DNA from: Escherichia phage vB_EcoM_JS09
Sequence record: NC_024124.2
Direction: 5' to 3' (one strand)
DNA length: 64,000 nucleotides
Part shown: piece by piece, positions 11,169 through 50,876 of the stretch
Position numbering within the stretch: position 1 is the stretch's first letter
How the letters are laid out: each line of letters opens with the position of its first letter
Notes under the pieces: generated by a model
Told to the model about the DNA's origin: nothing
Database searches by the model: none
The model's input: only the letters and a program-made list of their open reading frames with translations
Made by a program: the position numbers and the translations under genes

Positions 11169-11184
11169 GGGACCTTCGGGTCCC
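11169..11184 (+). terminator. CUUCGG-tetraloop hairpin (terminator-like)
   Basis: GGGACC-TTCG-GGTCCC; weak T tract. Confidence 0.4.
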
Positions 11185-11282
11185 TTTAGGGGGTTAAAAT
11201 ATTTTTAAAAAAGTAGTGTACATGCTTTTAGGATATGTTATTATAGACCTATCGAAACGAAATGAGTAAATTGGAGAATAAA

Positions 11283-12263: not shown

Positions 12264-12401
12264 TCTTATAGGAAGTTCTGAGGTAACAAAAGCCATAAAG
12301 ATGAATAATCATATGGCTTACCTCAAAGAAGGACACCAGGAACCTACTGAGGGCATAGAAATATTTAAAAATAATGATGTACAAATCAAAGAGGATATGT
12401 T

Positions 12402-12689: not shown

Positions 12690-12691
12690 TT

Positions 12692-12740
12692 GTTTACAAG
12701 GTCTATGATTATGTTATTATAGACCTATCAACTACTGGAG
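12692..12740 (+). promoter_or_regulatory. PeSL-like early promoter cassette
   Basis: GTTTAC, AGGTCTAT...ATAGACCT inverted repeat, shares TGTTATTATAGACCTATCAACTACTGGAG with the 45802 copy. Confidence 0.5.
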
Positions 12741-12747
12741 GTAAAAC

Positions 12748-13275
12748 ATGAACGCTAAAGATATTTTCAACCTGGTAAATTATAACGACGGTAAATTTAA
12801 ATCTGAAGCACAAAGCAAGTTCTTTAATGACGTTGCTTATGGTAACGAGATTACCGTAGACGGAGGTCAGATTTTCAAATCTCGCTGGAATTGGATTGCT
12901 ATCATCGATTCAGTTGGAATTGTGGAAGTCTACAAAAACACTAACAAAAAACGTACATTATTCTGGTCTCGTGAAACTAACGAGCAGTACAAAAAGGATA
13001 AAGCATCTCGTTTATCCAAAGTAACCCAGGAAGATATCGAGTTTATCAAGAAAGATATCGAGATGTACGAAAATTTAATCGCTGAAGACCAGGCAGTACT
13101 CGATAAGTTTGATGAAATTAAAGCTTCTCGTGAAATCCCTGACTTCATGAAAGAAACAGTAAACGAACGATACGCTCTCACTTCAGAACGTATTGCAAAC
13201 TATACAAAACAGAAAGCAGAACGTATTAGTACTCTTCGGAAATTTGAAGAACGTTTAAAGACGGTTCACGCATAA
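12748..13275 (+). CDS. Hypothetical protein
   Basis: SD ggagg; promoter cassette upstream. Confidence 0.5.
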   Translation: MNAKDIFNLVNYNDGKFKSEAQSKFFNDVAYGNEITVDGGQIFKSRWNWIAIIDSVGIVEVYKNTNKKRTLFWSRETNEQYKKDKASRLSKVTQEDIEFIKKDIEMYENLIAEDQAVLDKFDEIKASREIPDFMKETVNERYALTSERIANYTKQKAERISTLRKFEERLKTVHA

Positions 13276-13277
13276 AC

Positions 13278-13302
13278 GCTTTACCCAAGGACGGGTTATA
13301 AT
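13278..13302 (+). promoter_or_regulatory. Promoter cassette (GCTTTAC ... TATAAT)
   Basis: GCTTTACCCAAGGACGGGTTATAAT, related to the CCAAGGATGG family. Confidence 0.4.
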
Positions 13303-13337
13303 GGTTTTGAGTTCCAATTCAATCTGAGGAAATAGTT

Positions 13338-14333
13338 ATGAGCATTACATCTGATGCGGTAAAACATGAAATTAACGGTTTATGTGCTTCACAGATTAAA
13401 GTGTGGTTTAAAGACCATAATGATCGCAGAGCACTTAATTATGAGCAAATTGCTATCCAAGTTCATCAATTATTGACTAGTAAATTTGATTTTCATATGC
13501 CGTCTGAAATCTATACTAATCTACCGCGAGCGCTTATTAAAGCGTGTAAAGGTTACGGAAAATCAATGGCCGATGGAATCTTCAGCGCGCTGAATAAACT
13601 TAACGTTCTGTCGATGATTAACTCTAATAACATCCTGCGTAATCTAGGACGTACTGATTTGTTCGGTCGTGAACAGTGTAAAATGCCTTTGAAATGGATT
13701 GTTGCTCATCTTAACGAGAACCAAACACGTTTTATGGCCGTATCAGCACGCTTACAAATGGGCCTAGATCGTCAGATGAACTTTAAAACTCATCCACGTT
13801 ATTCAGGTTCAACAGACTTTTATAAATGTGAGCTTCAAAAGGTTGCAGGTAAAACTGTCTTAGTAGTTCGTGTAACGTTTGAAGGACGACGTCAAGGATA
13901 TTTTGACCTAATCGGCTCTGGTCTTAAACATTGTGGATTTATTGACGAAGTTGTTATAAAGCGAGACGGCATTGGATATCGTATTGGATATGTTTGTACT
14001 CTTAAAGAAGAGATTTCAGGTCCAGCACCAGGACTAAAAGACGTTAGATATAAAGACGAGCTCGTTGAAGAAATAAAAGAAGTTGAATATGATATCAACC
14101 AAGAAGATGCTCTTAAAGACCTTATTGATGAACTAAACCAAGACGTTATTCCGGTTCAAAAATTTGAATCAAAACATGCTGAGCAAATCAAATACTTTGA
14201 AGCTTTGATTAACGAACTTAATGTAACTATTCAACAGACTGATGATGAAATCTCACGATTAGCAGGCTTAAACGGTAAAAATAAAACAGAACGAGCTAAT
14301 CTTATTCAAGTAGTAAAACTTCTTAAGGAATGA
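13338..14333 (+). CDS. Hypothetical protein with C-terminal coiled-coil
   Basis: 331 aa; SD gagga; cassette GCTTTAC..TATAAT upstream. Confidence 0.5.
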   Translation: MSITSDAVKHEINGLCASQIKVWFKDHNDRRALNYEQIAIQVHQLLTSKFDFHMPSEIYTNLPRALIKACKGYGKSMADGIFSALNKLNVLSMINSNNILRNLGRTDLFGREQCKMPLKWIVAHLNENQTRFMAVSARLQMGLDRQMNFKTHPRYSGSTDFYKCELQKVAGKTVLVVRVTFEGRRQGYFDLIGSGLKHCGFIDEVVIKRDGIGYRIGYVCTLKEEISGPAPGLKDVRYKDELVEEIKEVEYDINQEDALKDLIDELNQDVIPVQKFESKHAEQIKYFEALINELNVTIQQTDDEISRLAGLNGKNKTERANLIQVVKLLKE

Positions 14334-14362
14334 TGTACAACCAAGGATGGTTGGAGTATAAT
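14334..14362 (+). promoter_or_regulatory. Repeated promoter cassette, CCAAGGATGGTTGGAGTATAAT family
   Basis: TGTACAACCAAGGATGGTTGGAGTATAAT; near-identical copies at 15329, 57193, 57752. Confidence 0.55.
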
Positions 14363-14388
14363 AAATTTTTCAACATGAGGAATATAAA

Positions 14389-15324
14389 ATGGCTTCTATT
14401 ACACGTAGAGAACTTATCAAAGAATTTACCTCGAACGCATATACCCCAGGTCCTAATCCTATCCGTATGCCTGTAAAGACTCCTGAAGAGATTGAGGAAA
14501 TCTGTTCATATTATGGGATTACTTCTCGTAAGTTTACTCAATTTGAATGCGTTACTAACACACCCGTTAAAGAGTTCATTAAAAATGGTGAGTTCAGCCG
14601 TTTATTAGCCAAACAGAAACTTCGTAATTTTTGTATTGGCGGTGAAGGACAATATTTCGCTAAGCAGTTCAGGAATAACCTTAACAATCTGATGGCCATT
14701 GCTTCTCGTATTCGTCCTCAAGCAATTAACATGAAACATTTGAAATATACTTACGATAAGTTAGAAATCATGGTTATCAGTGAGAACGAGTTCACTCTTA
14801 CGTATAAACCTAAGAATGATAACGTTGCTCGTGTATTCCACCAAGCGTTGGAAGTGTTAGGTGATAATATCCACCAGATTAAAGCAATTTATTCTCGTGA
14901 GCTTAATATTATCAACCCTATCAAGAATAAGGGCCATATCGCTATCCAGGCTCGTGTATCTATTGGTAAAAAGGTTCCTGCGCCATGGTGGCACAAAGAC
15001 TCTGAATACTATCAAAATCTTAAAAAGGAAAATGCCACGTTCGAAGCGTCAATTACTACAACCCCAATTGGCAATGCTGAAGTTCAAGGTGCATATTTTA
15101 CTGCTCCATCTATATACACTTCACCGTCGACTAAACTGGAAATCTCTAACGGTCTTCTTCCTGCCGAAGATTACCATTACAATCAAATCAAGGCCACTAT
15201 GGACAAACTGTCTGTTGAACTTGACAAAGCACAAGCTAAGCTTCGTGATGCTCAAAGTGTTGTAACGAATCTCCAGTTGCAGTATTCTAAACTTTTTAAC
15301 GCAATGAATGCATTAAAATCATAA
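14389..15324 (+). CDS. Hypothetical protein with C-terminal coiled-coil
   Basis: 311 aa; preceded by CCAAGGATGGTTGGAGTATAAT cassette. Confidence 0.5.
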   Translation: MASITRRELIKEFTSNAYTPGPNPIRMPVKTPEEIEEICSYYGITSRKFTQFECVTNTPVKEFIKNGEFSRLLAKQKLRNFCIGGEGQYFAKQFRNNLNNLMAIASRIRPQAINMKHLKYTYDKLEIMVISENEFTLTYKPKNDNVARVFHQALEVLGDNIHQIKAIYSRELNIINPIKNKGHIAIQARVSIGKKVPAPWWHKDSEYYQNLKKENATFEASITTTPIGNAEVQGAYFTAPSIYTSPSTKLEISNGLLPAEDYHYNQIKATMDKLSVELDKAQAKLRDAQSVVTNLQLQYSKLFNAMNALKS

Positions 15325-15328
15325 AATA

Positions 15329-15358
15329 GTTTACAACCAAGGATGGTTGGAGTATAAT
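15329..15358 (+). promoter_or_regulatory. Repeated promoter cassette, CCAAGGATGGTTGGAGTATAAT family
   Basis: GTTTACAACCAAGGATGGTTGGAGTATAAT. Confidence 0.55.
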
Positions 15359-15386
15359 GAATCTATCTTAACGAGAGGAAAATATT

Positions 15387-16337
15387 ATGACACGTTCACA
15401 TTACATTGATTATTTTGCAGGTCTTATCGCTAACGTTCATGCTCAGCGCGCTACTGGTGCACTAGGATTTGATGTTCCACACCGAGATGTAGTAAGTGGT
15501 ATTCTTCGAGATTTTGGCACATACACAGGTCAAGAAAATCATATCTGTAAAGATACTCAGAATGCGTATTCTCATTCATTAGGGACACTGCTTCATTGGT
15601 TCAAACGTTCTCGTTTATTATCTTCTACTGTGGCTCGTGATAACATTAAAAACTTTATGAAGCCGAGCTTTATTAAATCTGTGACATCTAAAACTGATTT
15701 GGTTGAATTTACTATTATTAACGATGTTAAAAAGACTCATTTGGCTGATTGGTTATCTACCATTCCTGAAACTAAATTTGCTGATAAATTTGCTTGTGAA
15801 TTCAATAACCAAGTGAATATGCTTTTTAAACATTCACGTAAATTATTCACAGGCGGTGATGGTCGTACAAATAAAGTTCATGTTAAAGATTGGGTTACTG
15901 CAGTATTCAAACCAACTGGTAATGGTAACGCATCATTGTCAATTGATATCCAGGTTCCTTATTACTACTCACGTAATCTCGGTACCATGAAAGCCGAAGA
16001 AATTAATAAGCGCAACAAAACCGTTCGTTCGCTGTCTTATAAACTTCGTATGATGTTACAGACTATGGATGTTGTTGAAATGTTCAGCGAAACTGAAGAT
16101 AATGGTTCAATGTTATTCAGTTCTCGTATTCAAATTAAGCTGAAGAACCCTAATACGTATAAACCTAAGCCTATTAAAGAGCCTAAAGCAGAAAAAGTTG
16201 ATAACTTAAGAGAAGAACGCGAATATCTCAAATCTCGTCTGAAAGAAGTCGAAGCCCAGATTGCAGAACAAACTAAATCGTTAAAAGCTCTGAATGCGAA
16301 AGCGGATGGCTTACGAAATGCCATTGAGGTGTTATAA
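15387..16337 (+). CDS. Hypothetical protein with C-terminal coiled-coil
   Basis: 316 aa; preceded by GTTTAC..CCAAGGATGGTTGGAGTATAAT cassette. Confidence 0.5.
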   Translation: MTRSHYIDYFAGLIANVHAQRATGALGFDVPHRDVVSGILRDFGTYTGQENHICKDTQNAYSHSLGTLLHWFKRSRLLSSTVARDNIKNFMKPSFIKSVTSKTDLVEFTIINDVKKTHLADWLSTIPETKFADKFACEFNNQVNMLFKHSRKLFTGGDGRTNKVHVKDWVTAVFKPTGNGNASLSIDIQVPYYYSRNLGTMKAEEINKRNKTVRSLSYKLRMMLQTMDVVEMFSETEDNGSMLFSSRIQIKLKNPNTYKPKPIKEPKAEKVDNLREEREYLKSRLKEVEAQIAEQTKSLKALNAKADGLRNAIEVL

Positions 16338-16642
16338 TGAAACTACGTCTTTTAGAGGATATTGATATGAGCACTAATCATGGCTTGGTTAAGTTTATTG
16401 ACGATAGTTCAAAGATTGAATTTGTTCAGCGAGATAAAATCCACGGTGAAGAAGAGTTCGTTCCTCCGGCATGGAACGAAATAATGAAAATGGTTGAACG
16501 ACGTGAAAATGCTGCCAAATCGGCAGCAAAACATCCATGTCCGGAATGTGGAACTATCCAAGTCCAACTGGTTAACTGGACCACTGATAACTTGAAATTG
16601 AAATGCCGTAAATGCTTCCACAAATTTGAGAGAACATTATAA
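16337..16642 (+). CDS. Zinc-ribbon small protein
   Basis: CPECG...CRKC pairs; TAATG coupling. Confidence 0.5.
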   Translation: MKLRLLEDIDMSTNHGLVKFIDDSSKIEFVQRDKIHGEEEFVPPAWNEIMKMVERRENAAKSAAKHPCPECGTIQVQLVNWTTDNLKLKCRKCFHKFERTL

Positions 16643-32978: not shown

Positions 32979-35690
32979 ATGAAAGAATTTTACTTAACGG
33001 TTGAACAGATTGGTGATTCAATTTTTGAACGTTACATCGATTCTAACGGCCGTGAACGTACTCGTGAAGTAGAATATAAACCATCACTGTTTGCTCATTG
33101 TCCGGAAAGTCAGGCTACGAAATATTTCGATATCTACGGTAAGCCGTGTACTCGTAAGTTGTTCGCTAATATGCGTGATGCCTCACAATGGATTAAACGC
33201 ATGGAAGATATCGGACTTGAAGCACTTGGCATGGACGATTTCAAATTGGCGTATTTGTCTGACACTTATAACTATGAAATCAAATACGACCATACAAAAA
33301 TTCGTGTGGCTAACTTCGACATCGAAGTAACATCTCCGGATGGGTTCCCTGAGCCGTCACAAGCAAAACATCCTATTGATGCTATCACTCATTATGACTC
33401 AATTGACGACAGGTTCTACGTATTTGATCTATTGAATTCTCCATATGGTAATGTGGAAGAATGGTCTATCGAAATTGCAGCTAAGCTTCAAGAACAAGGT
33501 GGTGATGAAGTTCCATCCGAAATTATCGATAAAATCATTTATATGCCGTTCGATAACGAAAAAGAATTGTTGATGGAATATCTCAACTTCTGGCAACAGA
33601 AAACTCCTGTCATTTTGACTGGATGGAACGTTGAGTCATTTGATATTCCATATGTGTATAACCGAATCAAGAATATTTTTGGCGAATCTACTGCGAAACG
33701 TTTATCACCACATCGTAAAACTCGTGTTAAAGTTATCGAAAACATGTATGGTTCTCGTGAAATCATTACACTGTTCGGTATCTCTGTTCTTGATTACATT
33801 GACCTTTACAAAAAATTCTCTTTTACCAATCAACCGTCGTATTCTCTGGATTACATTTCAGAATTTGAATTGAACGTTGGTAAACTGAAATATGACGGCC
33901 CTATTTCTAAGCTTCGTGAAAGCAATCACCAACGATATATTTCTTATAACATTATCGACGTGTATCGTGTATTGCAAATTGATGCTAAGCGTCAGTTCAT
34001 CAACTTGAGTTTGGACATGGGTTATTATGCTAAGATACAGATTCAATCCGTGTTTAGCCCAATTAAAACATGGGATGCTATTATTTTTAATAGCCTTAAA
34101 GAACAAAACAAGGTGATTCCACAAGGTCGTTCTCACCCGGTTCAACCTTATCCTGGCGCTTTTGTTAAGGAACCTATTCCAAATCGATACAAATATGTAA
34201 TGAGTTTCGACCTTACATCTCTGTATCCAAGTATTATTCGCCAAGTGAATATTAGCCCAGAAACAATAGCAGGAACGTTTAAAGTAGCTCCACTGCATGA
34301 TTATATTAACGCAATCGCTGAACGTCCTTCAGATGTGTACAGTTGCTCTCCTAACGGCATGATGTATTATAAAGACCGTGATGGTGTAGTTCCAACTGAA
34401 ATCACTAAGGTCTTTAATCAACGTAAAGAACATAAAGGTTACATGCTTGCAGCTCAACGTAATGGTGAAATAATTAAAGAGGCATTGCATAATCCTAATC
34501 TTTCTGTTGACGAACCATTAGATGTTGATTATCGTTTCGACTTCAGTGATGAGATTAAAGAAAAGATTAAAAAGTTGTCTGCTAAATCTCTTAATGAAAT
34601 GTTGTTTAGAGCTCAACGTACTGAAGTTGCAGGTATGACTGCACAGATTAACCGTAAATTGCTCATCAACTCACTTTATGGTGCACTTGGAAACGTTTGG
34701 TTCCGTTATTATGATTTGCGTAATGCTACTGCAATCACAACATTTGGTCAAATGGCTTTACAGTGGATTGAACGTAAAGTTAATGAATATCTGAATGAAG
34801 TTTGTGGTACAGAAGGCGAAGCTTTCGTTCTTTATGGTGATACAGACTCTATTTACGTATCTGCTGATAAAATTATCGATAAGGTTGGTGAATCTAAATT
34901 CCGTGATACCAACCATTGGGTAGACTTCTTAGATAAGTTCGCTCGTGAACGTATGGAACCTGCTATTGATAGAGGTTTCCGTGAAATGTGCGAATACATG
35001 AACAATAAGCAACATTTGATGTTCATGGACCGAGAAGCTATCGCTGGGCCTCCGCTTGGTTCTAAAGGTATTGGCGGATTTTGGACTGGTAAGAAACGTT
35101 ATGCATTAAACGTGTGGGATATGGAAGGTACTCGTTACGCTGAGCCTAAACTCAAAATCATGGGTCTAGAGACTCAGAAATCTTCGACTCCTAAAGCAGT
35201 ACAGAAAGCTCTTAAAGAATGTATTCGTCGTATGCTTCAGGAAGGTGAAGAATCATTACAAGAATATTTTAAAGAGTTTGAAAAAGAATTCCGTCAATTG
35301 AATTATATTAGCATCGCGTCGGTATCTTCTGCGAATAACATTGCTAAATACGACGTCGGTGGATTCCCTGGTCCCAAATGCCCGTTCCATATTCGTGGAA
35401 TTCTGACGTATAACCGGGCTATCAAAGGTAATATCGATGCACCGCAAGTTGTAGAAGGTGAAAAAGTATATGTTCTGCCTTTACGTGAAGGAAACCCATT
35501 CGGTGATAAATGTATCGCATGGCCTTCTGGCACTGAAATCACAGATTTAATTAAAGACGACGTACTTCATTGGATGGACTACACTGTTCTCCTTGAGAAG
35601 ACATTTATTAAACCACTTGAAGGATTCACATCAGCAGCGAAACTCGATTACGAGAAGAAAGCATCTCTATTCGATATGTTCGATTTTTGA
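32979..35690 (+). CDS. 43: DNA polymerase gp43 (family B)
   Basis: 903 aa; exonuclease motif FDIEV, polymerase motifs DLTSLYPSII, KLLINSLYGALG, YGDTDS. Confidence 0.95.
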   Translation: MKEFYLTVEQIGDSIFERYIDSNGRERTREVEYKPSLFAHCPESQATKYFDIYGKPCTRKLFANMRDASQWIKRMEDIGLEALGMDDFKLAYLSDTYNYEIKYDHTKIRVANFDIEVTSPDGFPEPSQAKHPIDAITHYDSIDDRFYVFDLLNSPYGNVEEWSIEIAAKLQEQGGDEVPSEIIDKIIYMPFDNEKELLMEYLNFWQQKTPVILTGWNVESFDIPYVYNRIKNIFGESTAKRLSPHRKTRVKVIENMYGSREIITLFGISVLDYIDLYKKFSFTNQPSYSLDYISEFELNVGKLKYDGPISKLRESNHQRYISYNIIDVYRVLQIDAKRQFINLSLDMGYYAKIQIQSVFSPIKTWDAIIFNSLKEQNKVIPQGRSHPVQPYPGAFVKEPIPNRYKYVMSFDLTSLYPSIIRQVNISPETIAGTFKVAPLHDYINAIAERPSDVYSCSPNGMMYYKDRDGVVPTEITKVFNQRKEHKGYMLAAQRNGEIIKEALHNPNLSVDEPLDVDYRFDFSDEIKEKIKKLSAKSLNEMLFRAQRTEVAGMTAQINRKLLINSLYGALGNVWFRYYDLRNATAITTFGQMALQWIERKVNEYLNEVCGTEGEAFVLYGDTDSIYVSADKIIDKVGESKFRDTNHWVDFLDKFARERMEPAIDRGFREMCEYMNNKQHLMFMDREAIAGPPLGSKGIGGFWTGKKRYALNVWDMEGTRYAEPKLKIMGLETQKSSTPKAVQKALKECIRRMLQEGEESLQEYFKEFEKEFRQLNYISIASVSSANNIAKYDVGGFPGPKCPFHIRGILTYNRAIKGNIDAPQVVEGEKVYVLPLREGNPFGDKCIAWPSGTEITDLIKDDVLHWMDYTVLLEKTFIKPLEGFTSAAKLDYEKKASLFDMFDF

Positions 35691-35730
35691 TATAATGACA
35701 TGGACGGTAAACTAATTAAATGAGAGAAAT

Positions 35731-36366
35731 ATGAAAACTACTCCTATTACTATCGCTATTGACGCAATCATAAAACAAGCTTCTTCTTTGGCCGCTATGG
35801 CCAAAGTAATTAGTCAAAACCCTGCTCGTTATAATGCTATTCTAGAAACTCTTCGACGCCCTGGACTTAGTAATTATGAAAGTCGTGTAATTATTACAGG
35901 TGTTGGTAAGAACGCTAATATCGCAACTAAAGCTTCTGAGACATTTGCTTCACTCGGTATCCCGAGTATGTACTTGAACACCGGGCATTATTCTCACGGT
36001 GATGCAGGATTCATTGCGCCTAATGATGTGTTGATTCATATTAGTCGTTCTGGTAAAACTGAAGAAATGATAGGCGTGGCTAAGCATCTTAAAACGATTC
36101 GTCCGAACGTCAAACAGATTCTGTTGCATTGTAACCCAGACATTCCACAAGAAAATGAAGCCCTTTTTGATTACTCTTTCTGTACAGGCATCGCAGTAGA
36201 GGTTGATGAGAATTCTCTGGCTCCGACCATGTCCACTACATTGTTGTTAGCGCTTATCGATACTTTTGCTATCAACCTTTCGTCTGAGCGTGGATTTACC
36301 TCTAATGACTTCCTTAAGTTCCACCCTGGCGGTGCACTAGGTGCCATGTTACGAGGCGAACAATGA
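35731..36366 (+). CDS. SIS-domain sugar-phosphate isomerase (arabinose-5-phosphate-isomerase-like, KdsD/GutQ-type)
   Basis: ITGVGKNANIATKASETFASLGIPS...HGDAGFIAPNDVLIHISRSGKTEE...LAPTMSTT...HPGGALGAM mirrors the KdsD/GutQ SIS domain; no CBS domains. Confidence 0.75.
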   Translation: MKTTPITIAIDAIIKQASSLAAMAKVISQNPARYNAILETLRRPGLSNYESRVIITGVGKNANIATKASETFASLGIPSMYLNTGHYSHGDAGFIAPNDVLIHISRSGKTEEMIGVAKHLKTIRPNVKQILLHCNPDIPQENEALFDYSFCTGIAVEVDENSLAPTMSTTLLLALIDTFAINLSSERGFTSNDFLKFHPGGALGAMLRGEQ

Positions 36367-36506
36367 AAGCAATAACAATAGGACTTTTACTATTGATGCT
36401 TGTCATGACTATCTACTGGAGCTTAACGGCTCCAGTAATGATTCCAACACTTGTAATCGGATGGATTATGATTGGACTACAAGCAAAGTATGAATGCTTT
36501 AACTAG
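36363..36506 (+). CDS. Small hydrophobic membrane peptide (47 aa)
   Basis: MKAITIGLLLLMLVMTIYWSL...TLVIGWIMIGL; ATGA overlap with SIS gene; T4 imm lies at this locus. Confidence 0.35.
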   Translation: MKAITIGLLLLMLVMTIYWSLTAPVMIPTLVIGWIMIGLQAKYECFN

Positions 36507-36547
36507 AATAGTGTACAATACTCCTACTTACTAATGAGGACCACAAC

Positions 36548-38233
36548 ATGAAAAAAGCTGTTATTCTTGGTGCTGGACTGGCAACTCGTTTGTATCCAAT
36601 AACGCATCATATTCCTAAGGTGCTTGTTAACTATAAACAAGACACTATTCTGAGCAATTTGTATACAATTTATTCTGACCTTGGTGCAGATGAAATTATT
36701 GTAGTAGTTCATTCAAAATTTGCTGAAACTGTTCGAGCTTATTGTGAGCAAGAAGGGTTCAATGTGACTATTCGTACAGTTGATGAAGCATATGGTTCTG
36801 CTTATGCTCTTGCTAAATTACACAAAGATTTAGACGGCCATAATGTAATTGTTAACTGGTGTGATATTATTCCTGATTTTGGTTCATGGTCTTGGAATGT
36901 TAACGCAATCTATGTTAAGGGTGACGAATGTCGATATAATTTCGACGGTGAAAATATCACTAACGTAGGTTCAACAGGTGGTAATGTTGTAGGAATTTAT
37001 CAGTTCAAAGACTGGGAATTCTATATGGGTTCTACTGATGAGGAAATTCATGAATACTGCAAAGGACGTGATTTCGTAGAATTCCTTTACGGCAGCGCAT
37101 TCAATAAATCAGAGCTTATGAATCTAATTGATTTAGGTGATATGCCTAAACTTGAAAAAGCTCATGAAGTTCGTGAACTTAATCGTAGTTTTAATGCAGT
37201 TGAAATTGGTGAAGAAACTGTAACTAAATTCGCATTAACCGAACAGGGCCGAGCTCTTCAGAAAGATGAGATTTCATGGTATCTTAAAGTGAAATCAGAT
37301 TCAGTTCCTCAGTTAGTTTCTGTTAATGAAAATAACTTTGAAATGGAACGCATTAAAGGTAAGCCGGCATTTGAATATATTAAATCCAAATCGAGTCTTG
37401 CTCGTCCACAAATTGTTGATGCAATTTTAGACGCACTGAAATTCAGCACAGACACTTATTTTGTAAGTCCTGAAACTGTTCGTCGTGATTTCACTAAAGA
37501 ATTCTATACGAAAGTTATTGATCGTTGTGAAAGCATTCAACCATTGATTGATTCATTTGGTAAAATCACACATGTGAACTACACTAAGATTGGACGTCTG
37601 AAGCCAATGTTGAAACAAGCTTTAGAACACCTTATTCGTTATCATAACCGTTCTCAGGGACAGTACTCTGTTATTCATGGCGACCCGAACTTCAGTAATA
37701 CTATGATTACTGATAATGGTGAAGTCAAGTTTATCGACCCTCGCGGATATTTTGGCGAAACCAAGATTTATGGGCCAAAATTGTATGATGAAGCTAAAGT
37801 GCTTTATGCTGTTTCAGGTTATGATGAATTCAACGCTAATCCGACCTGGGGACAGTTTACTATTGATGAAACAACTTGTAATGTGACTATTAACATCAAT
37901 CCATTAGTTTACAAATATGGAAAGATGAGTTCGTTTAACGAGTATCATCATTTGGCTGTAGCAATTATCTGGATTGCATTAGGTGGTTATTTCAAGAATA
38001 ATCCACTTAAAGCGGTAGCCGCATATTATAAAGGTATGGAACTTCTGACTAAGCAATTACGTAACATGGGCCGTGTACTTCAGGACGGCTCTATTAGTTA
38101 TGACGTAGCAGAACCTGTAACGGCTACTCTGATTACAAAAAATCCTGGTAAATGGGTACTAACTGATAAAGAAACTGGTGTTTCCTATCGTCCAATCGGT
38201 GGCGATATCACTCATCAATGGGAACGAATCTAA
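36548..38233 (+). CDS. Bifunctional sugar-1-phosphate nucleotidyltransferase / kinase-like protein
   Basis: N-terminus MKKAVILGAGLATRLYPITHHIPKVLV is NTP-transferase-like; C-terminus VIHGDPNFSNTMITDNGEVKFIDPRGYFG resembles the APH/choline-kinase catalytic loop. Confidence 0.65.
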   Translation: MKKAVILGAGLATRLYPITHHIPKVLVNYKQDTILSNLYTIYSDLGADEIIVVVHSKFAETVRAYCEQEGFNVTIRTVDEAYGSAYALAKLHKDLDGHNVIVNWCDIIPDFGSWSWNVNAIYVKGDECRYNFDGENITNVGSTGGNVVGIYQFKDWEFYMGSTDEEIHEYCKGRDFVEFLYGSAFNKSELMNLIDLGDMPKLEKAHEVRELNRSFNAVEIGEETVTKFALTEQGRALQKDEISWYLKVKSDSVPQLVSVNENNFEMERIKGKPAFEYIKSKSSLARPQIVDAILDALKFSTDTYFVSPETVRRDFTKEFYTKVIDRCESIQPLIDSFGKITHVNYTKIGRLKPMLKQALEHLIRYHNRSQGQYSVIHGDPNFSNTMITDNGEVKFIDPRGYFGETKIYGPKLYDEAKVLYAVSGYDEFNANPTWGQFTIDETTCNVTININPLVYKYGKMSSFNEYHHLAVAIIWIALGGYFKNNPLKAVAAYYKGMELLTKQLRNMGRVLQDGSISYDVAEPVTATLITKNPGKWVLTDKETGVSYRPIGGDITHQWERI

Positions 38234-38619
38234 TGCACCGTGTAGAAAACATGCTTAATCTTTGTTTTGATGTCGATGATTGTATAACAGAGTGGAATAA
38301 CAATCGTGATTACGTGAACTTCAAACCAGACGTCGAAATGGTGACTGCCATTAATGCCCTGTATGATGCAGGGCATACAATAACGCTTTACACTGCTCGC
38401 GGTATGAAGTCAGTCGGTCCTGGTCGTATAGCAATTGACATTCTCCCAAGTCTGATTCAGAACTTGGCAAACATTGGATTGAAGTACCATAATTTGCTAA
38501 CACATAAACCAGTATATGATTGGATTATCGACGACAAAGCTATGCGTCCTGACGAATTCAAAGCTCTTATGAATAAAGGCGAATTCGAAACATTTAAATC
38601 ATATAAACCGAATCTATAA
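38233..38619 (+). CDS. HAD-superfamily phosphatase
   Basis: Motif I LCFDVDDCIT, motif II TLYTARG, motif III K...IIDDKA; TAATG coupling to upstream gene. Confidence 0.6.
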   Translation: MHRVENMLNLCFDVDDCITEWNNNRDYVNFKPDVEMVTAINALYDAGHTITLYTARGMKSVGPGRIAIDILPSLIQNLANIGLKYHNLLTHKPVYDWIIDDKAMRPDEFKALMNKGEFETFKSYKPNL

Positions 38620-38673
38620 TAATTTAAGTAAGACCTGCAAAAACCATCGCAACAATTAACGCGAGATGCAAAA

Positions 38674-39834
38674 ATGAATACCTTTAAAATCGGAACGAAT
38701 TTTGATTTAGCTCTTCTTGATAAAATCGTAGAGCTCAATAAAACTTATCCTAATAGCTTGATAAACGAAGTATACGGCTCTACAAGAGAAATGGCTTTTG
38801 TAGCAGCCAGACCTGATTTTAGGCTTCCTGACGTTGACAAAAAGATGTTAGAAGATTACGTTAAACGTTGTAACGAATTAGGTATTTGCTTTAACTATAC
38901 ACTCAACACGATAAATCCTGGTTCAAAAAGAGAACTAGTTGAGTGGAAGAAGAAAGCTATTCAGGATTATGTTCAGTATCTTTGGTCAATAGGCGTATGG
39001 CGTATTACTATCGCTAACCCTGTTGTTATGGAAATTGTTCGTGAAGTCAATAAAGACATTGAGATTGAAGTTTCAACAATTCTACATGTCGATGCTGTAA
39101 CTCAAATCAAATACTTGCATGACCAGTATAATATCAAAAAGGTCTGCTGTGGAATTCATAAGAACCGTTCAGTTTCTTTCCTGAAGCGTGCAGCAGAGTT
39201 TTGCAATAAGAACAATATAATATTTGAAGTTCTTGTAAATGAGTTCTGTTCTAATGCTGGTAAAGGGTATACAACACATTGTAGCTATCGTGACTCTTGC
39301 TATATTTTCCATAGTACTGATGTTACAGCTGATGATGCTAAATCCTTAAACGGATATCCTATGCAGCACTGTATTAAAGCTCGTGATACAGACCCATTTA
39401 ACTGGTTGAGAACTCGTTTTGTTCGCCCCCAAGATTTGAAACTTTATAATGATATTGGTATCACTCAATTTAAAGTTTCGGGACGTACAGGTAGCACCGA
39501 CTACATTTTGAAAGTTCTTGAAGCTTATGCTTCTGAAAAGTTTGAAGGTAATTTGTTGGAATTGTGGAAGCCTTTAGAGACCATTTTCACTCTTGAAAAT
39601 GAGACAGAGTTTTCACATACAGTAAATATTGAAACCTCTTTGTTAGATGGCTTTTTAGAAAAAAGGTGGTTCAGACATCCAGATTTCGATTGTGCTAATG
39701 AAATCTGCGGGACGACGTGTACATATTGTGAAAGATATTATAAACGTCAATTATCTAAAAACGGGTTAGCAGAAAACTCTATATCTATTATTGATATAAC
39801 TAACTCTGATGACGCTTTGAGGTACCCGGAATGA
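38674..39834 (+). CDS. Peptidase-U32-family protein (UbiU/RlhA/TrhP-like putative Fe-S enzyme)
   Basis: N-terminus IGTNFDLALLDKIV...EVYGSTREMAFVAARPDF, NPVVMEIVREVNKDIEIEVST and Cys cluster EVLVNEFCSNAGKGYTTHCSYRDSCY parallel U32 hallmarks. Confidence 0.6.
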   Translation: MNTFKIGTNFDLALLDKIVELNKTYPNSLINEVYGSTREMAFVAARPDFRLPDVDKKMLEDYVKRCNELGICFNYTLNTINPGSKRELVEWKKKAIQDYVQYLWSIGVWRITIANPVVMEIVREVNKDIEIEVSTILHVDAVTQIKYLHDQYNIKKVCCGIHKNRSVSFLKRAAEFCNKNNIIFEVLVNEFCSNAGKGYTTHCSYRDSCYIFHSTDVTADDAKSLNGYPMQHCIKARDTDPFNWLRTRFVRPQDLKLYNDIGITQFKVSGRTGSTDYILKVLEAYASEKFEGNLLELWKPLETIFTLENETEFSHTVNIETSLLDGFLEKRWFRHPDFDCANEICGTTCTYCERYYKRQLSKNGLAENSISIIDITNSDDALRYPE

Positions 39835-39992
39835 TTTCTAGAAAAACTTTTAACCACCAACTTAACGAAGAGATTTTGACTATGAAACTGAACACTAATG
39901 AACAAATTCTTAAAAAGGCCCTGATGGGCCTGTTTGAAACTAAAGCGGCTAAAGTGATTAAAGAAACCTGTTCAATTGGAATACTACGCTGA
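39831..39992 (+). CDS. Small hypothetical protein (53 aa)
   Basis: ATGA overlap with U32 gene; not in track. Confidence 0.3.
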   Translation: MISRKTFNHQLNEEILTMKLNTNEQILKKALMGLFETKAAKVIKETCSIGILR

Positions 39993-40070
39993 TGCATTTC
40001 TTCATAGTGTTCTTGGAAGTATCGATGCTGAAGCTTTACGTTATATCAACATTGTCAAGAAATTCAAATA

Positions 40071-40094
40071 AGCTTTACGAATTGAGTATATAAT
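40071..40094 (+). promoter_or_regulatory. Middle-promoter-like element upstream of gene 42
   Basis: AGCTTTA, 11-nt spacer, TATAAT. Confidence 0.4.
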
Positions 40095-40113
40095 AAATTG
40101 TATTGAGGTAAAC

Positions 40114-40830
40114 ATGGGAAAACATAACACAATGAAATATATCAAAGCCGCAGATTTTCAAACCGCATTTAAAGCAGTCAATCGTGAAATTTTAGAAAAC
40201 CCGGAATTCGTAACTGATTCTCGTATTGGACGTTGTAATGAAATTGGGTCTATGACAGTAGTTGTTGACACTCCATCATCATTCAAAATGACCGACCCAC
40301 GTATTAACCGCATCTCTTATGAATATGCCGAAGACTTCTGGAAGTTTATGATTTCTGGTGGTACCAACGCAGAAGAAGCGTTTAAGGCATATCCTAATGT
40401 CGCTAAATTTATTTCTAAACCAAAATCAGATGTTTTGCCGGCGAACTTCAACACTTTCTATGGTCCTCGCATTGCGGCCCAATTACCAGCTCTTCTAAAA
40501 GAACTTAAAGAGAAGCCTAACTCCCGAAGAGTTGTGTTCCAAATTCTAGAAAGTTCTGATCAGGCTTTGCTTGATTCAGACGAAACGCTTGAATATCCAT
40601 GTACTGACTCAGTGACTTATTATATTCGTGATGGTAAGCTTTATACCCACTGTCATATGCGTTCTCAGAACTGTGCTGTTGTTATGCAGTTGGATTTTTA
40701 TCTCCAAGGAAAATTACTTCATTATATCGCTAACGAATGTGGTGTAGAAGTTGGTGATTATACTCATACCATGGTAAGTGCCCATGTGTTTGAACGTGAT
40801 TTTGATTATGTTAAAGGATTCCTTGACTAA
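40114..40830 (+). CDS. 42: Thymidylate-synthase-fold pyrimidine hydroxymethylase (dCMP hydroxymethylase-like, divergent)
   Basis: Active-site-like EYPCTD, SRRVVFQI and MRSQNCAVVMQLDF segments; occupies gene 42 position between 43 and uvsX. Confidence 0.65.
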   Translation: MGKHNTMKYIKAADFQTAFKAVNREILENPEFVTDSRIGRCNEIGSMTVVVDTPSSFKMTDPRINRISYEYAEDFWKFMISGGTNAEEAFKAYPNVAKFISKPKSDVLPANFNTFYGPRIAAQLPALLKELKEKPNSRRVVFQILESSDQALLDSDETLEYPCTDSVTYYIRDGKLYTHCHMRSQNCAVVMQLDFYLQGKLLHYIANECGVEVGDYTHTMVSAHVFERDFDYVKGFLD

Positions 40831-41729
40831 TGGCTATTTTCCGCGTACCTATTTTGAGTATGCGGTCTTATGAAACTGGACAGTATGCTATCCTTAAGGA
40901 TGGCAACTTCCAACTTCATTTGCACCGTGCTAATCCAGGTGATGTGATTACATATCCACGTAATGCATCTGATATTAAAGAATGCGAACGTCTTTTTCCG
41001 GAATTTAAGTTTGTTCCATTATGGTATAAAGATAACGCGTATAACACTCGTAAATATTTCTGGTCTGAAAATGAATTTGTGGTTGATTCATTAATTGCTT
41101 ATTATGATTGTGATTTTCTAATCACAGATATCACTGGATATGATGGCGCTTTTGACGTAGAATTCAATTTCAATATCACTGCAGACCCTAATAAACCACG
41201 TTTTTATATTGATGAATTCTTAAAAACCGACATGTTGTCTGTTAATCGTTCACTTCAAACTACTGTGTTGAATGAACGTCAAAAAGAAGTGCTGGTTAAC
41301 GCAGGTGCAGATGGTAATAAGATTATCGTAACACAGAAAGTTATACGTCCTTCCGTCATGCAGCGTCTTGTAGGTGATTTGGCTCCTATTCATCTAGATG
41401 GTATTTTTCATCCATTTCGAATTAGTGACCCATGCTATCGTTTTGAACAAGTGGTTGAATGCGCAATTCAATTAGGTCAACCGCTTTATATAACTGATCC
41501 AAATAATAGTTTCGACAGAAATAAGTATCCTGAAGAAGCGCTGATTCGAATTTTTAATCCAACTAAAACTGAGTACTATCAAATTCTTAAAGGACGTCCG
41601 AAGATTCAATATTTCGAAAATCCTGAAGAAGTATTCCATCCAGGTCTTGGTGAGTTCATCTACTTTAATGCTTTAATTTCTTCGCCGTATAATATACCTA
41701 AATACGAAGATGTCGTAATCGAGGAATAA
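40830..41729 (+). CDS. Hypothetical protein at the T4 beta-glucosyltransferase locus
   Basis: 299 aa; TAATG coupling to gene 42; no resemblance to recalled T4 beta-gt. Confidence 0.5.
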   Translation: MAIFRVPILSMRSYETGQYAILKDGNFQLHLHRANPGDVITYPRNASDIKECERLFPEFKFVPLWYKDNAYNTRKYFWSENEFVVDSLIAYYDCDFLITDITGYDGAFDVEFNFNITADPNKPRFYIDEFLKTDMLSVNRSLQTTVLNERQKEVLVNAGADGNKIIVTQKVIRPSVMQRLVGDLAPIHLDGIFHPFRISDPCYRFEQVVECAIQLGQPLYITDPNNSFDRNKYPEEALIRIFNPTKTEYYQILKGRPKIQYFENPEEVFHPGLGEFIYFNALISSPYNIPKYEDVVIEE

Positions 41730-41730
41730 A

Positions 41731-42279
41731 ATGGCTAAAATTATTTTAGTAGATGGCCCGGATAATGCCGGTAAAACAACTTTCATTAATGACATAATGG
41801 AAATTAGTGAAAGATATGTAAAGATTGATTTCCCTAAACGAACAGTTGATGGACGTTTCGATGTTAAGTCTCGAAATGAAGTTGGCTGTTTCGAAACGAT
41901 GTTGAATTATTTAGACCCTACTAAGATTTATCTGTTAGACCGTGGATATATTAGTAACTGGGTTTATGGACGTATTCGACAAGATGTGGACTCGGTTCTT
42001 GACGTTTATGAACAGGATTATGTTCGTCTTTGCCAAAACCATGATGTGTTCACAATTATTTTAACACGTAACGAAATGACTGAAAGTTTTGAAGACGACC
42101 TTATTACTTTGTCTTCATTCGGTTTTAATACAGTCATTTCATATTTTGAAGAGTTTGCAATTCATAACAAAATCCAAACGTATCAATTACTTAATCATGA
42201 CGGTGCTAACAAAGTTATAGGATTTAATGCAAGCGAACGTAATTATTTGATTACAGAAATTATCAAATGGGCTCGTTAA
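41731..42279 (+). CDS. P-loop kinase-like protein
   Basis: Walker A VDGPDNAGKTT at N-terminus, 182 aa, NMP/sugar-kinase-like size; SD gagga. Confidence 0.5.
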   Translation: MAKIILVDGPDNAGKTTFINDIMEISERYVKIDFPKRTVDGRFDVKSRNEVGCFETMLNYLDPTKIYLLDRGYISNWVYGRIRQDVDSVLDVYEQDYVRLCQNHDVFTIILTRNEMTESFEDDLITLSSFGFNTVISYFEEFAIHNKIQTYQLLNHDGANKVIGFNASERNYLITEIIKWAR

Positions 42280-42301
42280 GAGCCTGTTTAAAGTTTTTAA
42301 A

Positions 42302-42326
42302 TGCTGTATAACCCTTAGTATATAAT
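42302..42326 (+). promoter_or_regulatory. Middle-promoter-like element upstream of uvsX
   Basis: TGCTGTA box variant, 12-nt spacer, TATAAT. Confidence 0.4.
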
Positions 42327-42379
42327 CGTCTTATCTTTTAAACATGAGTAAAATATAATGATGCCTATGGAAAAATACA

Positions 42380-43552
42380 ATGTCTGATTTAAAATCTCGT
42401 CTGATTAAAGCTTCTACTTCTAAAATGACTGCAGACTTGACTAAGTCTAAGCTGTTTAATAATCGTGATGAAGTCCCTACTCGTATTCCGATGTTGAATA
42501 TTGCATTAGGTGGTGCACTGAATGCAGGGTTGCAATCAGGCTTAACTATTTTTGCTGCTCCTTCTAAACACTTTAAAACGTTGTTTGGACTAACTATGGT
42601 TGCAGCATATATGAAGAAATATAAAGATGCAATCTGTTTGTTTTATGACTCAGAATTCGGTGCTTCAGAATCTTATTTTCGTTCAATGGGTGTTGATTTA
42701 GACCGTGTAGTTCATACGCCAATTCAGTCCGTCGAACAACTTAAAGTTGATATGACTAATCAGCTTGACGCGATTGAACGCGGTGATAAAGTTATTATCT
42801 TTATCGATTCAATCGGTAATACTGCATCTAAGAAAGAAACCGAAGATGCGTTGAACGAGAAAGTTGTAGGTGATATGTCTCGTGCTAAGGCACTTAAATC
42901 TCTTTTCCGTATTGTGACTCCTTATCTGACTATTAAAGATATTCCGTGTGTTGCAATTAACCATACCGCAATGGAAATTGGTGGATTGTATCCTAAAGAG
43001 ATTATGGGCGGTGGTACAGGTATTCTTTATTCTGCCAACACGGTATTTTTTATCTCTAAACGTCAGGTTAAAGAAGGTACAGAATTGACCGGTTATGACT
43101 TCACGTTGAAAGCAGAAAAATCTCGCACCGTTAAAGAAAAATCTACTTTCCCAATCACGGTTAATTTTGATGGTGGTATCGACCCATTCAGCGGCTTGCT
43201 AGAAATGGCAACCGAAATTGGTTTTGTAGTTAAGCCTAAAGCCGGTTGGTATGCTCGTGAATTCCTTGACGAAGAAACAGGTGAAATGATTCGTGAAGAG
43301 AAATCGTGGCGTGCTAAAGCTACTGATTGTGTAGAATTCTGGGGACCTTTGTTTAAACACAAACCTTTCCGAGATGCAATTGAAACTAAATATAAACTAG
43401 GTGCTATCTCTTCTATTAAAGAAGTTGATGATGCTGTTAACGACCTTATTAATTGCAAAGCAACAACTAAAGTTCCGGTTAAAACTTCTGATGCTCCGTC
43501 TGCAGCAGATATAGAAAACGACCTTGACGAAATGGAAGATTTCGATGAATAA
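42380..43552 (+). CDS. uvsX: Recombinase UvsX (RecA-like)
   Basis: MSDLKSRLIKASTSK... near-identical in pattern to recalled T4 UvsX; acidic C-terminus. Confidence 0.95.
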   Translation: MSDLKSRLIKASTSKMTADLTKSKLFNNRDEVPTRIPMLNIALGGALNAGLQSGLTIFAAPSKHFKTLFGLTMVAAYMKKYKDAICLFYDSEFGASESYFRSMGVDLDRVVHTPIQSVEQLKVDMTNQLDAIERGDKVIIFIDSIGNTASKKETEDALNEKVVGDMSRAKALKSLFRIVTPYLTIKDIPCVAINHTAMEIGGLYPKEIMGGGTGILYSANTVFFISKRQVKEGTELTGYDFTLKAEKSRTVKEKSTFPITVNFDGGIDPFSGLLEMATEIGFVVKPKAGWYAREFLDEETGEMIREEKSWRAKATDCVEFWGPLFKHKPFRDAIETKYKLGAISSIKEVDDAVNDLINCKATTKVPVKTSDAPSAADIENDLDEMEDFDE

Positions 43553-50266: not shown

Positions 50267-50354
50267 AATATCTCCTTAGTTACCTATTATTTATTACGCT
50301 TTATAAAATTAATGTTAGAATTAACTCTCTTATACTGAATTGAAAGGAAAAATA

Positions 50355-50876
50355 ATGGCACACTTTAACGAATGTTCACAACTTATTTCTGGTGTTGATA
50401 AAGCAGAAGAAGCTTATTTTAATGCTCTGATTCACGAAGATAAAGACCCACTTCAGGTAATGCTTGATATGCAGAAATCTTTACAGGTTCGTTTGGCAAA
50501 TGACAAGCCTGAACATAACAAACATCCTGATGAATTGGCCACTGCAGGCGACGTTGTTGATTGGCTGCGTAATCAGAAAGATTATATTGATGATGAATTC
50601 CGTGAACTGCTGACTTCACTTGGTGGTATGAGCAATGGTGAAAAAGCCGCCAGCAGTGTATGGAAGCCGTGGAAAGCACAACATGCTGAATATCGTAATC
50701 GTCGTATCGATGAACTGTCTCCTGAAGACCAGCTTGAAATTAAATTTGAGATGATTGATATTCTGCACTTCGTTCTGAACATGTTCCAAGGTCTGGGTCT
50801 TTCTGCTGAAGAAATCTTTAAACTTTACTACTTGAAAAACCAACACAACTTTGAACGCCAGGATAATGGTTACTGA
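50355..50876 (+). CDS. 56: dCTP pyrophosphatase gp56
   Basis: MAHFNEC...DKDPLQVMLDMQ...SPEDQLEIKFE...AEEIFKLYYLKN matches recalled T4 gp56. Confidence 0.9.
   Translation: MAHFNECSQLISGVDKAEEAYFNALIHEDKDPLQVMLDMQKSLQVRLANDKPEHNKHPDELATAGDVVDWLRNQKDYIDDEFRELLTSLGGMSNGEKAASSVWKPWKAQHAEYRNRRIDELSPEDQLEIKFEMIDILHFVLNMFQGLGLSAEEIFKLYYLKNQHNFERQDNGY

Follow-up and report, generated by a model that had tools for sequence, protein, structure and literature searches.

What does the gene cassette at positions 35731-39992 of Escherichia phage vB_EcoM_JS09 make, and why does it carry a protein of the Peptidase_U32 family (hereafter U32)? The cassette lies in a 64,000-nucleotide stretch of the phage genome (NC_024124.2), which we refer to as the window, and a first-pass annotation had read its four open reading frames (ORFs) together as a nucleotide-sugar pathway feeding a modification of cytosine. 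We find that the cassette is very probably the known donor-sugar arm of arabinosyl-5-hydroxycytosine DNA hypermodification and as such is already published (Thomas 2018; Lee 2026; He 2026; PDB 9iqw). Only the U32 protein is without a role in the literature covered. For this protein we lean, from comparative evidence alone, towards an O2-independent, prephenate-dependent dCMP 5-hydroxylase.

All four ORFs lie on the plus strand where the first-pass annotation had placed them, and profile scans returned the families that it had named (SIS, nucleotidyltransferase-kinase, HAD and U32), with the kinase matches below threshold. The first gene (35731-36366, +) encodes a predicted SIS-only D-arabinose-5-phosphate isomerase of 211 amino acids, an ortholog of RB69 gp55 that would interconvert ribulose 5-phosphate (Ru5P) and D-arabinofuranose 5-phosphate (Araf5P). 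It matches Pfam SIS with 42.6 bits (gathering threshold, GA, 25; E=6.6e-11), TIGR00393 (KpsF/GutQ) at E=1.4e-32, phrog_5670 'arabinose 5-phosphate isomerase' and the PDB entries 3etn (1.4e-25) and 2xhz (3.8e-19). The second gene (36548-38233, +) encodes a putative bifunctional enzyme of 561 amino acids, orthologous to RB69 ORF53_52c and HY126 AfhE, with an N-terminal Araf1P uridylyltransferase and a C-terminal Araf5P 1-kinase. Residues 3-99 of this fusion enzyme correspond to NTP_transferase (39.1 bits, GA 21.2) and the protein matches PDB 1jyk at 2e-5, while residues ~308-409 gave kinase-fold matches below threshold only (Fructosamin_kin, EcKL, RIO1 and APH). The third gene (38233-38619, +) encodes a predicted HAD-type Araf1,5P2 5-phosphatase of 128 amino acids, the ortholog of RB69 gp51 and HY126 AfhF. 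Pfam returned nothing on this protein; it matches the capsule phosphatase family TIGR01689 (EcbF/BcbF) at E=4.6e-13, contains the motif FDVDDC and is near-identical to the structure 9iqw (E=4.4e-87), with a further PDB match to 1xpj (6e-10). Its TAATG-coupled start, which had been noted earlier, is real: the stop codon TAA of the fusion gene occupies 38231-38233 and the phosphatase ATG begins at 38233, which makes 38233-38619 the best placement of the phosphatase.

The order of isomerase, anomeric kinase, phosphatase and nucleotidyltransferase, from which the first-pass annotation had suggested an NDP-arabinose product, proved to be that of a published route to UDP-arabinofuranose (UDP-Araf), which runs from Ru5P through Araf5P, Araf1,5P2 and Araf1P to UDP-Araf (PMC13326640, relaying He et al. 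2026). As far as that relayed account goes, HY126 AfhE phosphorylates Araf5P, giving Araf1,5P2, and acts again at a later step to form UDP-Araf (He et al. 2026, Nat Chem Biol), and HY126 AfhF is the Mg-dependent phosphatase giving Araf1P. In the window the SIS enzyme would convert host ribulose-5-P to D-arabinofuranose-5-P, the C-terminal kinase domain of the fusion enzyme would then phosphorylate C1, the small HAD phosphatase would take off the 5-phosphate and the N-terminal nucleotidyltransferase domain would yield UDP-Araf. The module between gp43 and uvsX had been named the likely source of UDP-arabinose by Thomas et al. 2018, who found arabinose in RB69 DNA and mended a sequencing error in ORF053c/052c to give a single protein of 561 amino acids (PMC6024577). 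The statement that the pathway is not characterised therefore fails for the sugar pathway, which was proposed in 2018 and worked out by 2025-2026, and stands for U32 alone.

The base that receives the sugar is made by genes to the right of the cassette. Here the first-pass annotation had correctly recognised DNA polymerase gene 43 on one side, but its 'hydroxymethylase gene 42' on the other is a thymidylate synthase (TS) homolog of 238 amino acids (40114-40830, +), orthologous to RB69 gp48 and predicted to be a flavin/O2-dependent 5-hydroxy-dCMP synthase. This TS homolog scores 56.9 bits with Thymidylat_synt and is near-identical to PDB 9iqc and 9ir2 (E=8e-161); 9iqu is likewise a structure of the hydroxylase. 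It reads MRSQN...QLD, that is D169N and N177D in an alignment with a manually entered E. coli ThyA reference sequence, so that Asn stands in the window protein at ThyA position 169 where a T4 gp42-type enzyme has Asp. RB69 gp48 makes 5-hydroxy-dCMP with flavin and O2, and Asn169 (ThyA numbering) is diagnostic of this activity (Lee et al., NAR 2026; PMC13326640). The same authors established by mass spectrometry and nuclear magnetic resonance that D-arabinofuranose is ether-linked to 5-hydroxycytosine (PMC13326640). Mono- and di-arabinosyl-5-hydroxy-dC have been reported in the virion DNA of RB69, NP and HY126 relatives (PMC13326640, PMC13390438); for RB69 and phage NP the nucleoside described is 5-O-arabinosyl-5-hydroxy-dC (m/z 376/508), which lacks the hydroxymethyl carbon. 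The arabinosyl-5-hydroxymethylcytosine (ara-hmC) assignment of 2018 is called erroneous in a later paper (PMC13390438). A non-glucose hypermodification of cytosine, as the first-pass annotation had expected, is thus borne out, but not in the form of ara-hmC, since the arabinose sits on 5-hydroxycytosine (PMC13326640, PMC13390438).

In the window the TS homolog would make 5-hydroxy-dCMP with flavin and O2, and a thymidylate kinase (TMPK)-like nucleotide kinase of 182 amino acids (41731-42279, +; RB69 gp45 ortholog; phrog_761 'thymidylate kinase', 7.9e-45) would pass it on toward the triphosphate. Two GT-B transferases would then add one or two arabinoses to 5-hydroxycytosine in DNA. The predicted first DNA arabinosyltransferase, glycosyltransferase GT1 (40830-41729, +; 299 amino acids; phrog_3891, E=1e-155), is the ortholog of RB69 gp46:47, a type of glycosyltransferase to which this role is assigned in PMC13326640. 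The putative second one (62505-63605, +; phrog_8302) is the ortholog of RB69 ORF003c, sharing 365/366 residues with RB69p003, and takes its role from the literature (PMC6024577, PMC13326640). It adjoins topoisomerase gene 39 and is 20 kb away from the cassette; the modification genes thus occupy two places in the window. A MazG-like NTP pyrophosphohydrolase (50340-50876; phrog_173, E=1.8e-45) occupies the position of the T4 gp56/RB69p028 dCTPase and, by analogy, would remove unmodified dCTP. With U32 set aside, the sugar and base steps have been demonstrated in published work on near-identical proteins and are assigned to the window by orthology.

U32 does not belong to the sugar pathway of which the first-pass annotation had made it a component. 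Searches of phage records by tblastn found the fusion enzyme in 375 and the TS homolog in 372 records and U32 in only 220. There are 57 Acinetobacter records with the fusion enzyme and the TS homolog and 20 Rhizobium records with the TS homolog, and neither host is among the organism names listed for U32 (any name not listed has no more than 3 records). In Acinetobacter phage AM101 the SIS, fusion, HAD and TS-homolog genes are contiguous with nothing between them, and phage DLP3, whose cluster is without U32, makes tri-arabinosyl-5-hydroxycytosine (PMC13326640). As Acinetobacter phages carry the same arabinose pathway and the same modification without U32, the protein, on this comparison of gene content, is no step in arabinose synthesis. 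The organism and host names listed for U32 are all enterobacteria and Shewanella, i.e. facultative anaerobes, and this distribution, with Acinetobacter and Rhizobium missing, hints at a hydroxylation that can do without O2.

The U32-family protein itself (38674-39834, +; 386 amino acids) is the ortholog of RB69 gp50, a predicted Fe-S protein and the proposed O2-independent, prephenate-dependent dCMP C5 hydroxylase. Peptidase_U32 (PF01136) matches it with 42.2 bits (GA 22.4), and it has the U32/TIM-barrel fold. The characterised U32 proteins RlhA, TrhP and UbiU/V carry out O2-independent, prephenate- and Fe-S-dependent hydroxylations: RlhA forms 5-hydroxycytidine (ho5C2501) in 23S rRNA and TrhP 5-hydroxyuridine (ho5U34) in tRNA, both of them pyrimidine C5 hydroxylations, and UbiU/V act on quinones (ubiquinone). 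The known U32 hydroxylations need prephenate, and in the case of UbiU/V it has been proposed to donate the oxygen. When the phage U32 profile was compared with E. coli paralogs using hhalign, the best was RlhA (probability 76 %, E=2e-5, 203 columns), while single UbiU and TrhP sequences gave probabilities of 5-7 %, which are not significant. The RlhA alignment sets CSYRDSCYIFHS opposite CVAYSGQCYISHA, bringing phage C203 and C209 onto RlhA C169 and C176 in a CX5C-Y-I-x-H core. Ten cysteines are invariant among 30 U32 homologs (C158, C177, C192, C203, C209, C233, C340, C345, C349 and C352); a MAFFT alignment of five U32 proteins was unreliable near the Cys motif. No other protein of the module is as well conserved as U32, which retains 80-89 % identity where the fusion enzyme has 41-73 % and the TS homolog 67-83 %.

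At residues 340-352 the protein carries an invariant C-x4-C-x3-C-x2-C, in which the last three cysteines are spaced CX3CX2C as in radical-SAM enzymes and the final Cys is preceded by an aromatic residue. This C-terminal motif is absent in E. coli UbiU, UbiV and TrhP, and the C-terminal cysteines of RlhA are spaced otherwise.

A connection with prephenate supply appears in the genes beside U32. Chorismate mutase, the product of which is prephenate, is encoded right after U32 in 51 phage records and in 15 of the 19 T4-like loci examined. In Enterobacter phage Entb_45 and Shewanella phage Thanatos-2 a CM_2 chorismate mutase gene overlaps the U32 stop codon (40.9 and 32.8 bits; GA 27). A chorismate mutase domain also lies near U32 in five unrelated viral contigs (L048, L049, L051, L052 and L054), of which L051 was scanned with Pfam, revealing a fusion of 3-deoxy-D-arabino-heptulosonate 7-phosphate (DAHP) synthase with chorismate mutase (CM_2, 64.9 bits). 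In the mechanism that we propose, U32 would be a second, O2-independent C5 hydroxylase, an Fe-S enzyme taking the hydroxyl oxygen from prephenate, and would yield 5-hydroxy-dCMP during anoxic growth of the host, backing up the O2-dependent TS homolog. The adjacent chorismate mutase of the relatives would furnish the prephenate. The window phage encodes no chorismate mutase and would depend on host PheA/TyrA instead.

The DAHP synthase-chorismate mutase fusion of L051 (IMGVR_UViG_3300033463_004353, 7302-8357; 125 + 65 bits) is flanked by genes for a TMPK-like kinase and a HAD phosphatase and precedes U32 by two genes. An entry enzyme of the shikimate pathway is unusual in a virus.

Viral contigs distant from the T4-like phages bear on the relation between U32 and the TS homolog. 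A profile scan of IMG/VR with U32 gave 25 loci on non-T4-like contigs with homologs of 40-55 % identity; nine of these U32-only contigs come from IMG/VR set 3300045988, which is perhaps a human-gut virome. Profile hidden Markov models (HMMs) built from the T4-like proteins detected GT1 beside U32 at 13 of these loci, the TMPK-like kinase at 12, the fusion enzyme at 10, SIS at 8 and chorismate mutase at 5, and the minimal arrangement of kinase, GT1 and U32 stands next to a Pol III alpha gene (L040, L059). No TS-type hydroxylase with D169N was found by HMM within 9 kb of U32 at any of the 25; the sole TS match (L039, 243 bits) keeps Asp169 and is canonical and ThyA-like. Conversely, a profile scan with the TS homolog gave 50 loci, which included 15/15 of the T4-like contigs with U32 and 0/25 of the distant ones, and the distant TS-homolog contigs show the order TS homolog, GT1 and kinase with no U32 within 3 kb. 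A triad of hydroxylase, kinase and glycosyltransferase with either U32 or the TS homolog in the first slot is the pattern expected of analogous enzymes, and by this gene content U32 and the TS-type hydroxylase look interchangeable. If so, U32 would be the first prephenate-dependent, O2-independent hydroxylase known for a DNA precursor and a non-homologous counterpart of the TS homolog, with T4-like enterophages having both types, phages of strict aerobes the TS type only and many uncultured phages, some of them apparently of gut origin and often with a chorismate mutase of their own, U32 only, a picture that we hold slightly more probable than its negation.

Further genes near U32 at distant loci agree with the proposed role, as they encode enzymes of deoxynucleotide metabolism or, on L121, a sugar system other than arabinose. 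Near U32, the 466-kb contig L116 and contig L119 carry a TMPK-like kinase, a uracil-DNA glycosylase, Pol III alpha and a dCMP deaminase, and L116 also a MazG-like gene. On L121 (Logan SRR33454321_1371, 6777-15179), a phage contig with no arabinose genes, U32 is flanked by glycosyltransferases, one of them weakly TAGT-like, along with a dUTPase/DCD-family gene and a UDP-galactopyranose mutase (GLF), which suggests DNA carrying a hexofuranosyl-hydroxypyrimidine, with the hydroxyl supplied by U32. L117 (ENA ERZ28598223 scaffold_150, 9001-16428) encodes a 50 %-identical U32 together with NT5C, a PnuC-like transporter, a deoxynucleoside kinase (dNK), a radical SAM/SPASM protein and a nucleoside deoxyribosyltransferase. 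It also has a second, faint U32-like protein, gshA, MarR and a dockerin-bearing GH43, looks cellular and anaerobic, and its cluster may represent a bacterial or prophage deoxynucleoside modification. Radical SAM/SPASM genes recur by U32 homologs, lying at 1314-2249 on L116 and at 13160-14185 on L117.

Several points weigh against the assignment of U32 as a dCMP hydroxylase, the argument for which is wholly comparative and leaves us only a little on its side. The match to RlhA is modest and comes from a comparison with one sequence per E. coli paralog. The canonical U32 spacing CX6CX15CX3/4C is absent, the phage protein having C192-x10-C203-x5-C209-x23-C233 and the C-terminal CX4CX3CX2C; given this departure, binding of an Fe-S cluster by the phage U32 is no more than likely. 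Absence of the TS homolog from the U32-only contigs was checked by HMM within 9 kb and contig-wide by two exact peptide patterns. The dCMP deaminase beside U32 in some contigs leaves dUMP possible as the substrate there. The window phage is joined by Klebsiella phage Marfa in encoding no chorismate mutase, and about 40 Escherichia phage records (e.g. Dhakavirus AnYang) have the TS homolog and fusion enzyme without U32, so a facultatively anaerobic host does not force the presence of U32. We found no paper tying U32, prephenate or chorismate mutase to phage modification, with He et al. 2026 and Mahler et al. 2025 outside the coverage of this search; these may assign U32 differently.

A strict rule by which every phage of a facultative anaerobe would carry U32 was considered and fails on the Dhakavirus-type E. 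coli phages. Dhakavirus AnYang is also without the SIS gene and its cluster looks reduced. At the place of U32 and chorismate mutase, before the TS homolog, it has an ORF of 92 amino acids (L021, 8225-8503), which, to judge by visual inspection, is similar to the C-terminal half of the TMPK-like kinase. As a candidate chorismate mutase this ORF was rejected.

Among other roles for U32, that of a redox enzyme acting on sugar or heterocycle after hydroxylation, where it might tune the arabinose or an intermediate, is improbable. The TIM-barrel fold and the many conserved cysteines agree with such a role, and authors who studied RB69 label gp50, elsewhere a 'peptidase', as a 'sugar or heterocycle reductase', but the label is given without supporting data (PMC13326640 Table 1). 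The end products of RB69 and DLP3 share the same arabinofuranosyl-5-hydroxycytosine chemistry with U32 present or not, U32 occurs also without arabinose genes beside GT1 and a kinase or beside GLF/TAGT, and a redox role leaves the link with chorismate mutase without explanation.

We consider it similarly unlikely that U32 hydroxylates cytosine in DNA after replication, or dUMP or another nucleotide, instead of dCMP. RlhA and TrhP do work on polymers, and dCMP deaminase adjoins U32 in the megaphage-like contigs; the dedicated nucleoside monophosphate kinase found with U32 at 12/25 distant loci, however, implies a monophosphate product. The dCTPase-type MazG-like gene (phrog_173) of the window also speaks against a post-replicative step. 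T4 gp56 eliminates dCTP, and if the MazG-like enzyme does the same, cytosine must be modified before it enters DNA.

An RlhA/TrhP-like RNA hydroxylase, which would install ho5C or ho5U in host or phage rRNA or tRNA, adjust translation and sit in the module by an accident of genome plasticity, is a doubtful candidate to which we give little credence. RlhA is the nearest E. coli paralog, and T4-like phages generally carry tRNA genes and RNA-modifying functions. Against this, the phage protein has 386 amino acids where RlhA has 653 and TrhP 453, and has a terminal Cys motif of its own. Its linkage to GT1, TMPK-like kinase, dCMP deaminase, dNK and NT5C across unrelated viruses, together with the mutual exclusion of U32 and the TS-type dCMP hydroxylase outside enterobacterial T4-like phages, is likewise at odds with an RNA substrate.

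Very little can be said for taking the whole cassette, U32 included, as an uncharacterised four-enzyme NDP-pentose route that decorates 5-hydroxymethylcytosine (hmC) from an adjacent gene-42 hydroxymethylase. Its domain content fits, and the 2018 paper both gave ara-hmC and proposed the module (PMC6024577). It is contradicted by the base, which is 5-hydroxycytosine with ether-linked arabinose (PMC13326640, PMC13390438), by the D169N hydroxylase signature of the TS homolog and its match to PDB 9iqc, and by the count of enzymes, UDP-Araf needing three only (PMC13326640) and Acinetobacter phages managing without U32. A collagenase-like peptidase with no tie to DNA modification is scarcely credible in spite of the database names 'peptidase' and 'collagenase-like protease' and of Kimura et al. 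having been unable to exclude fully a peptidase role for RlhA, as RlhA, TrhP and UbiU/V act in hydroxylation and Fe-S-type conserved cysteines in a context of nucleotide metabolism misfit a protease.

The surrounding locus is that of a known phage group. Every gene across 32979-43552 is on the plus strand of the ORF list, the module being flanked on the left by DNA polymerase gp43 (32979-35690, +), an ORF of 903 amino acids so annotated at the syntenic position in RB69 and HY126, and on the right by uvsX (from 42380, +). The GC content of the cassette, 0.34-0.42, is no different from that of its flanks. A stretch of 4.4 kb recurs at 95-99 % identity among 153 phage records, all of them RB69-like Mosigviruses of Escherichia and Shigella, so the ORF arrangement is not due to chance, and by this similarity the window phage is one more isolate of Mosigvirus (RB69/HY126-like). 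Identities to the HY126 proteins are 98.6 % (SIS), 97.0 % (fusion), 99.2 % (HAD) and 99.7 % (U32) in the cassette and 97.9 % (TS homolog), 98.7 % (glycosyltransferase) and 98.4 % (kinase) on the base side. The gene order between gp43 and uvsX is the same in RB69 and HY126, and the proteins are about 99 % identical to those of RB69. A promoter scan gave 21 sites against 25.5 expected, i.e. not above chance. The module closes ahead of uvsX with a terminator-like hairpin that has a 10-pair stem and a T-rich tail (42265-42289, +) and was identified as a consensus match only.

Two small genes lie within the module. The first (36363-36506, +) overlaps the SIS stop codon and encodes a strongly hydrophobic product of 47 amino acids (phrog_3610, E=6.8e-27). 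It is present in 12/19 T4-like loci, its RB69 counterpart is annotated as 'similar to T4 42-imm intercistronic region', and it may encode a small membrane protein or else be a remnant related to imm. The second (39831-40071, +), between U32 and the TS homolog, is a frameshifted member of the RB69ORF049c family, the intact form of which has 79 amino acids in phiE142 and RB69 and matches phrog_8601 (E=6e-52). In the window a single additional A within an A-run (AAAGAAACC) shifts the frame by +1, leaving an ORF of 53 amino acids that stops at 39992, the position at which the first-pass annotation had ended the cassette, and a remainder that runs to 40071 in a different frame. HY126 likewise has a broken copy, which shares the extra A and has in addition an inserted T; the gene may be decaying, phase-variable or mis-sequenced. 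It occurs alongside chorismate mutase in several genera. The 53-amino-acid ORF was considered as a decayed chorismate mutase and this was ruled out, since it is a frameshifted phrog_8601 gene, a gene that coexists with a true CM_2 in several phages.

The cassette itself brings nothing new, being a further copy of a published and partly structurally solved pathway. The U32 protein raises a different matter: the only demonstrated route to 5-hydroxy-dCMP needs O2, yet the hosts of these phages are enterobacteria of the anoxic gut, and all cytosine in the phage DNA is replaced. If our assignment is true, a U32/prephenate hydroxylase would close this gap of cytosine modification without air, would give a reason for the phage chorismate mutases and would bring the organic oxygen-donor chemistry known from RlhA/TrhP/UbiUV into viral DNA hypermodification. 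Its nucleotide-level substrate would be the first for the U32 family, and one more readily reconstituted than rRNA, tRNA or polyprenyl quinones. The combination of U32, GT1 and TMPK-like kinase would then serve as a metagenome marker for hydroxypyrimidine-glycosylated genomes and delimit a large group of phages, so far unrecognised, whose DNA is based on 5-hydroxypyrimidines. For phage therapy and the enzymatic handling of DNA, levels of modification may vary with oxygen and with the status of the host aromatic pathway.

Compared with known systems, the window shares with the arabinosyl-5-hydroxycytosine cluster of RB69, HY126, Bas46-47 and DLP3 the SIS, kinase/uridylyltransferase and HAD enzymes, the TS-type hydroxylase, two glycosyltransferases and the kinase. 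Papers on this cluster reportedly include Mahler 2025 and He 2026 (the 'Afh' genes). Nothing of substance sets the window apart from the RB69/HY126 cluster, the ORF049c-family gene being frameshifted in the window. The likeness to the GDP-D-glycero-alpha-D-manno-heptose route (GmhA, HddA, GmhB, HddC), which the first-pass annotation had drawn, holds for the shared logic of ketose-phosphate isomerase, anomeric kinase, distal phosphatase and nucleotidyltransferase but does not extend to membership of those families; the analogy with the heptose-bisphosphate phosphatase was pointed out by Lee et al. (PMC13326640). The isomerase of the cassette is of the KpsF/KdsD/GutQ type and not GmhA, the phosphatase is EcbF/BcbF-like with just 14 bits to HAD-IIIA, and the kinase is APH/choline-kinase-like (fructosamine-kinase and EcKL matches) and fused to the transferase; the score for HddC is 22.1 bits, far below its cutoff of 300. 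The sugar, too, is a pentofuranose and its carrier UDP.

The T4 glucosyl-hmC system, comprising gp42 dCMP hydroxymethylase, gp1 kinase, alpha-gt/beta-gt and host UDP-glucose, occupies the same neighbourhood and likewise employs a TS-superfamily enzyme acting on dCMP before replication, a kinase and GT-B glycosylation of DNA. Unlike T4, the window has a hydroxyl for a hydroxymethyl group (flavin/O2 for methylene-tetrahydrofolate), arabinofuranose for glucose, a donor made by the phage and a possible anaerobic hydroxylase. That candidate shares with RlhA, TrhP and UbiU-UbiV the PF01136 family, TIM-barrel, conserved cysteines and a genomic tie to prephenate supply, and its proposed chemistry is that of RlhA/TrhP. 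It differs from them in being phage-encoded and much shorter than RlhA, in its extra invariant CX4CX3CX2C and in its presumed deoxynucleotide substrate. O2-dependent and O2-independent enzymes are known to be paired in TrhO/TrhP and UbiI-H-F/UbiU-V, where a non-homologous pair for each step covers the whole range of O2, and NrdDG backs up NrdAB in T4-like phages. By analogy we infer a pairing of this kind for 5-hydroxy-dCMP, with the TS homolog as the O2-dependent and U32 as the putative O2-independent partner.

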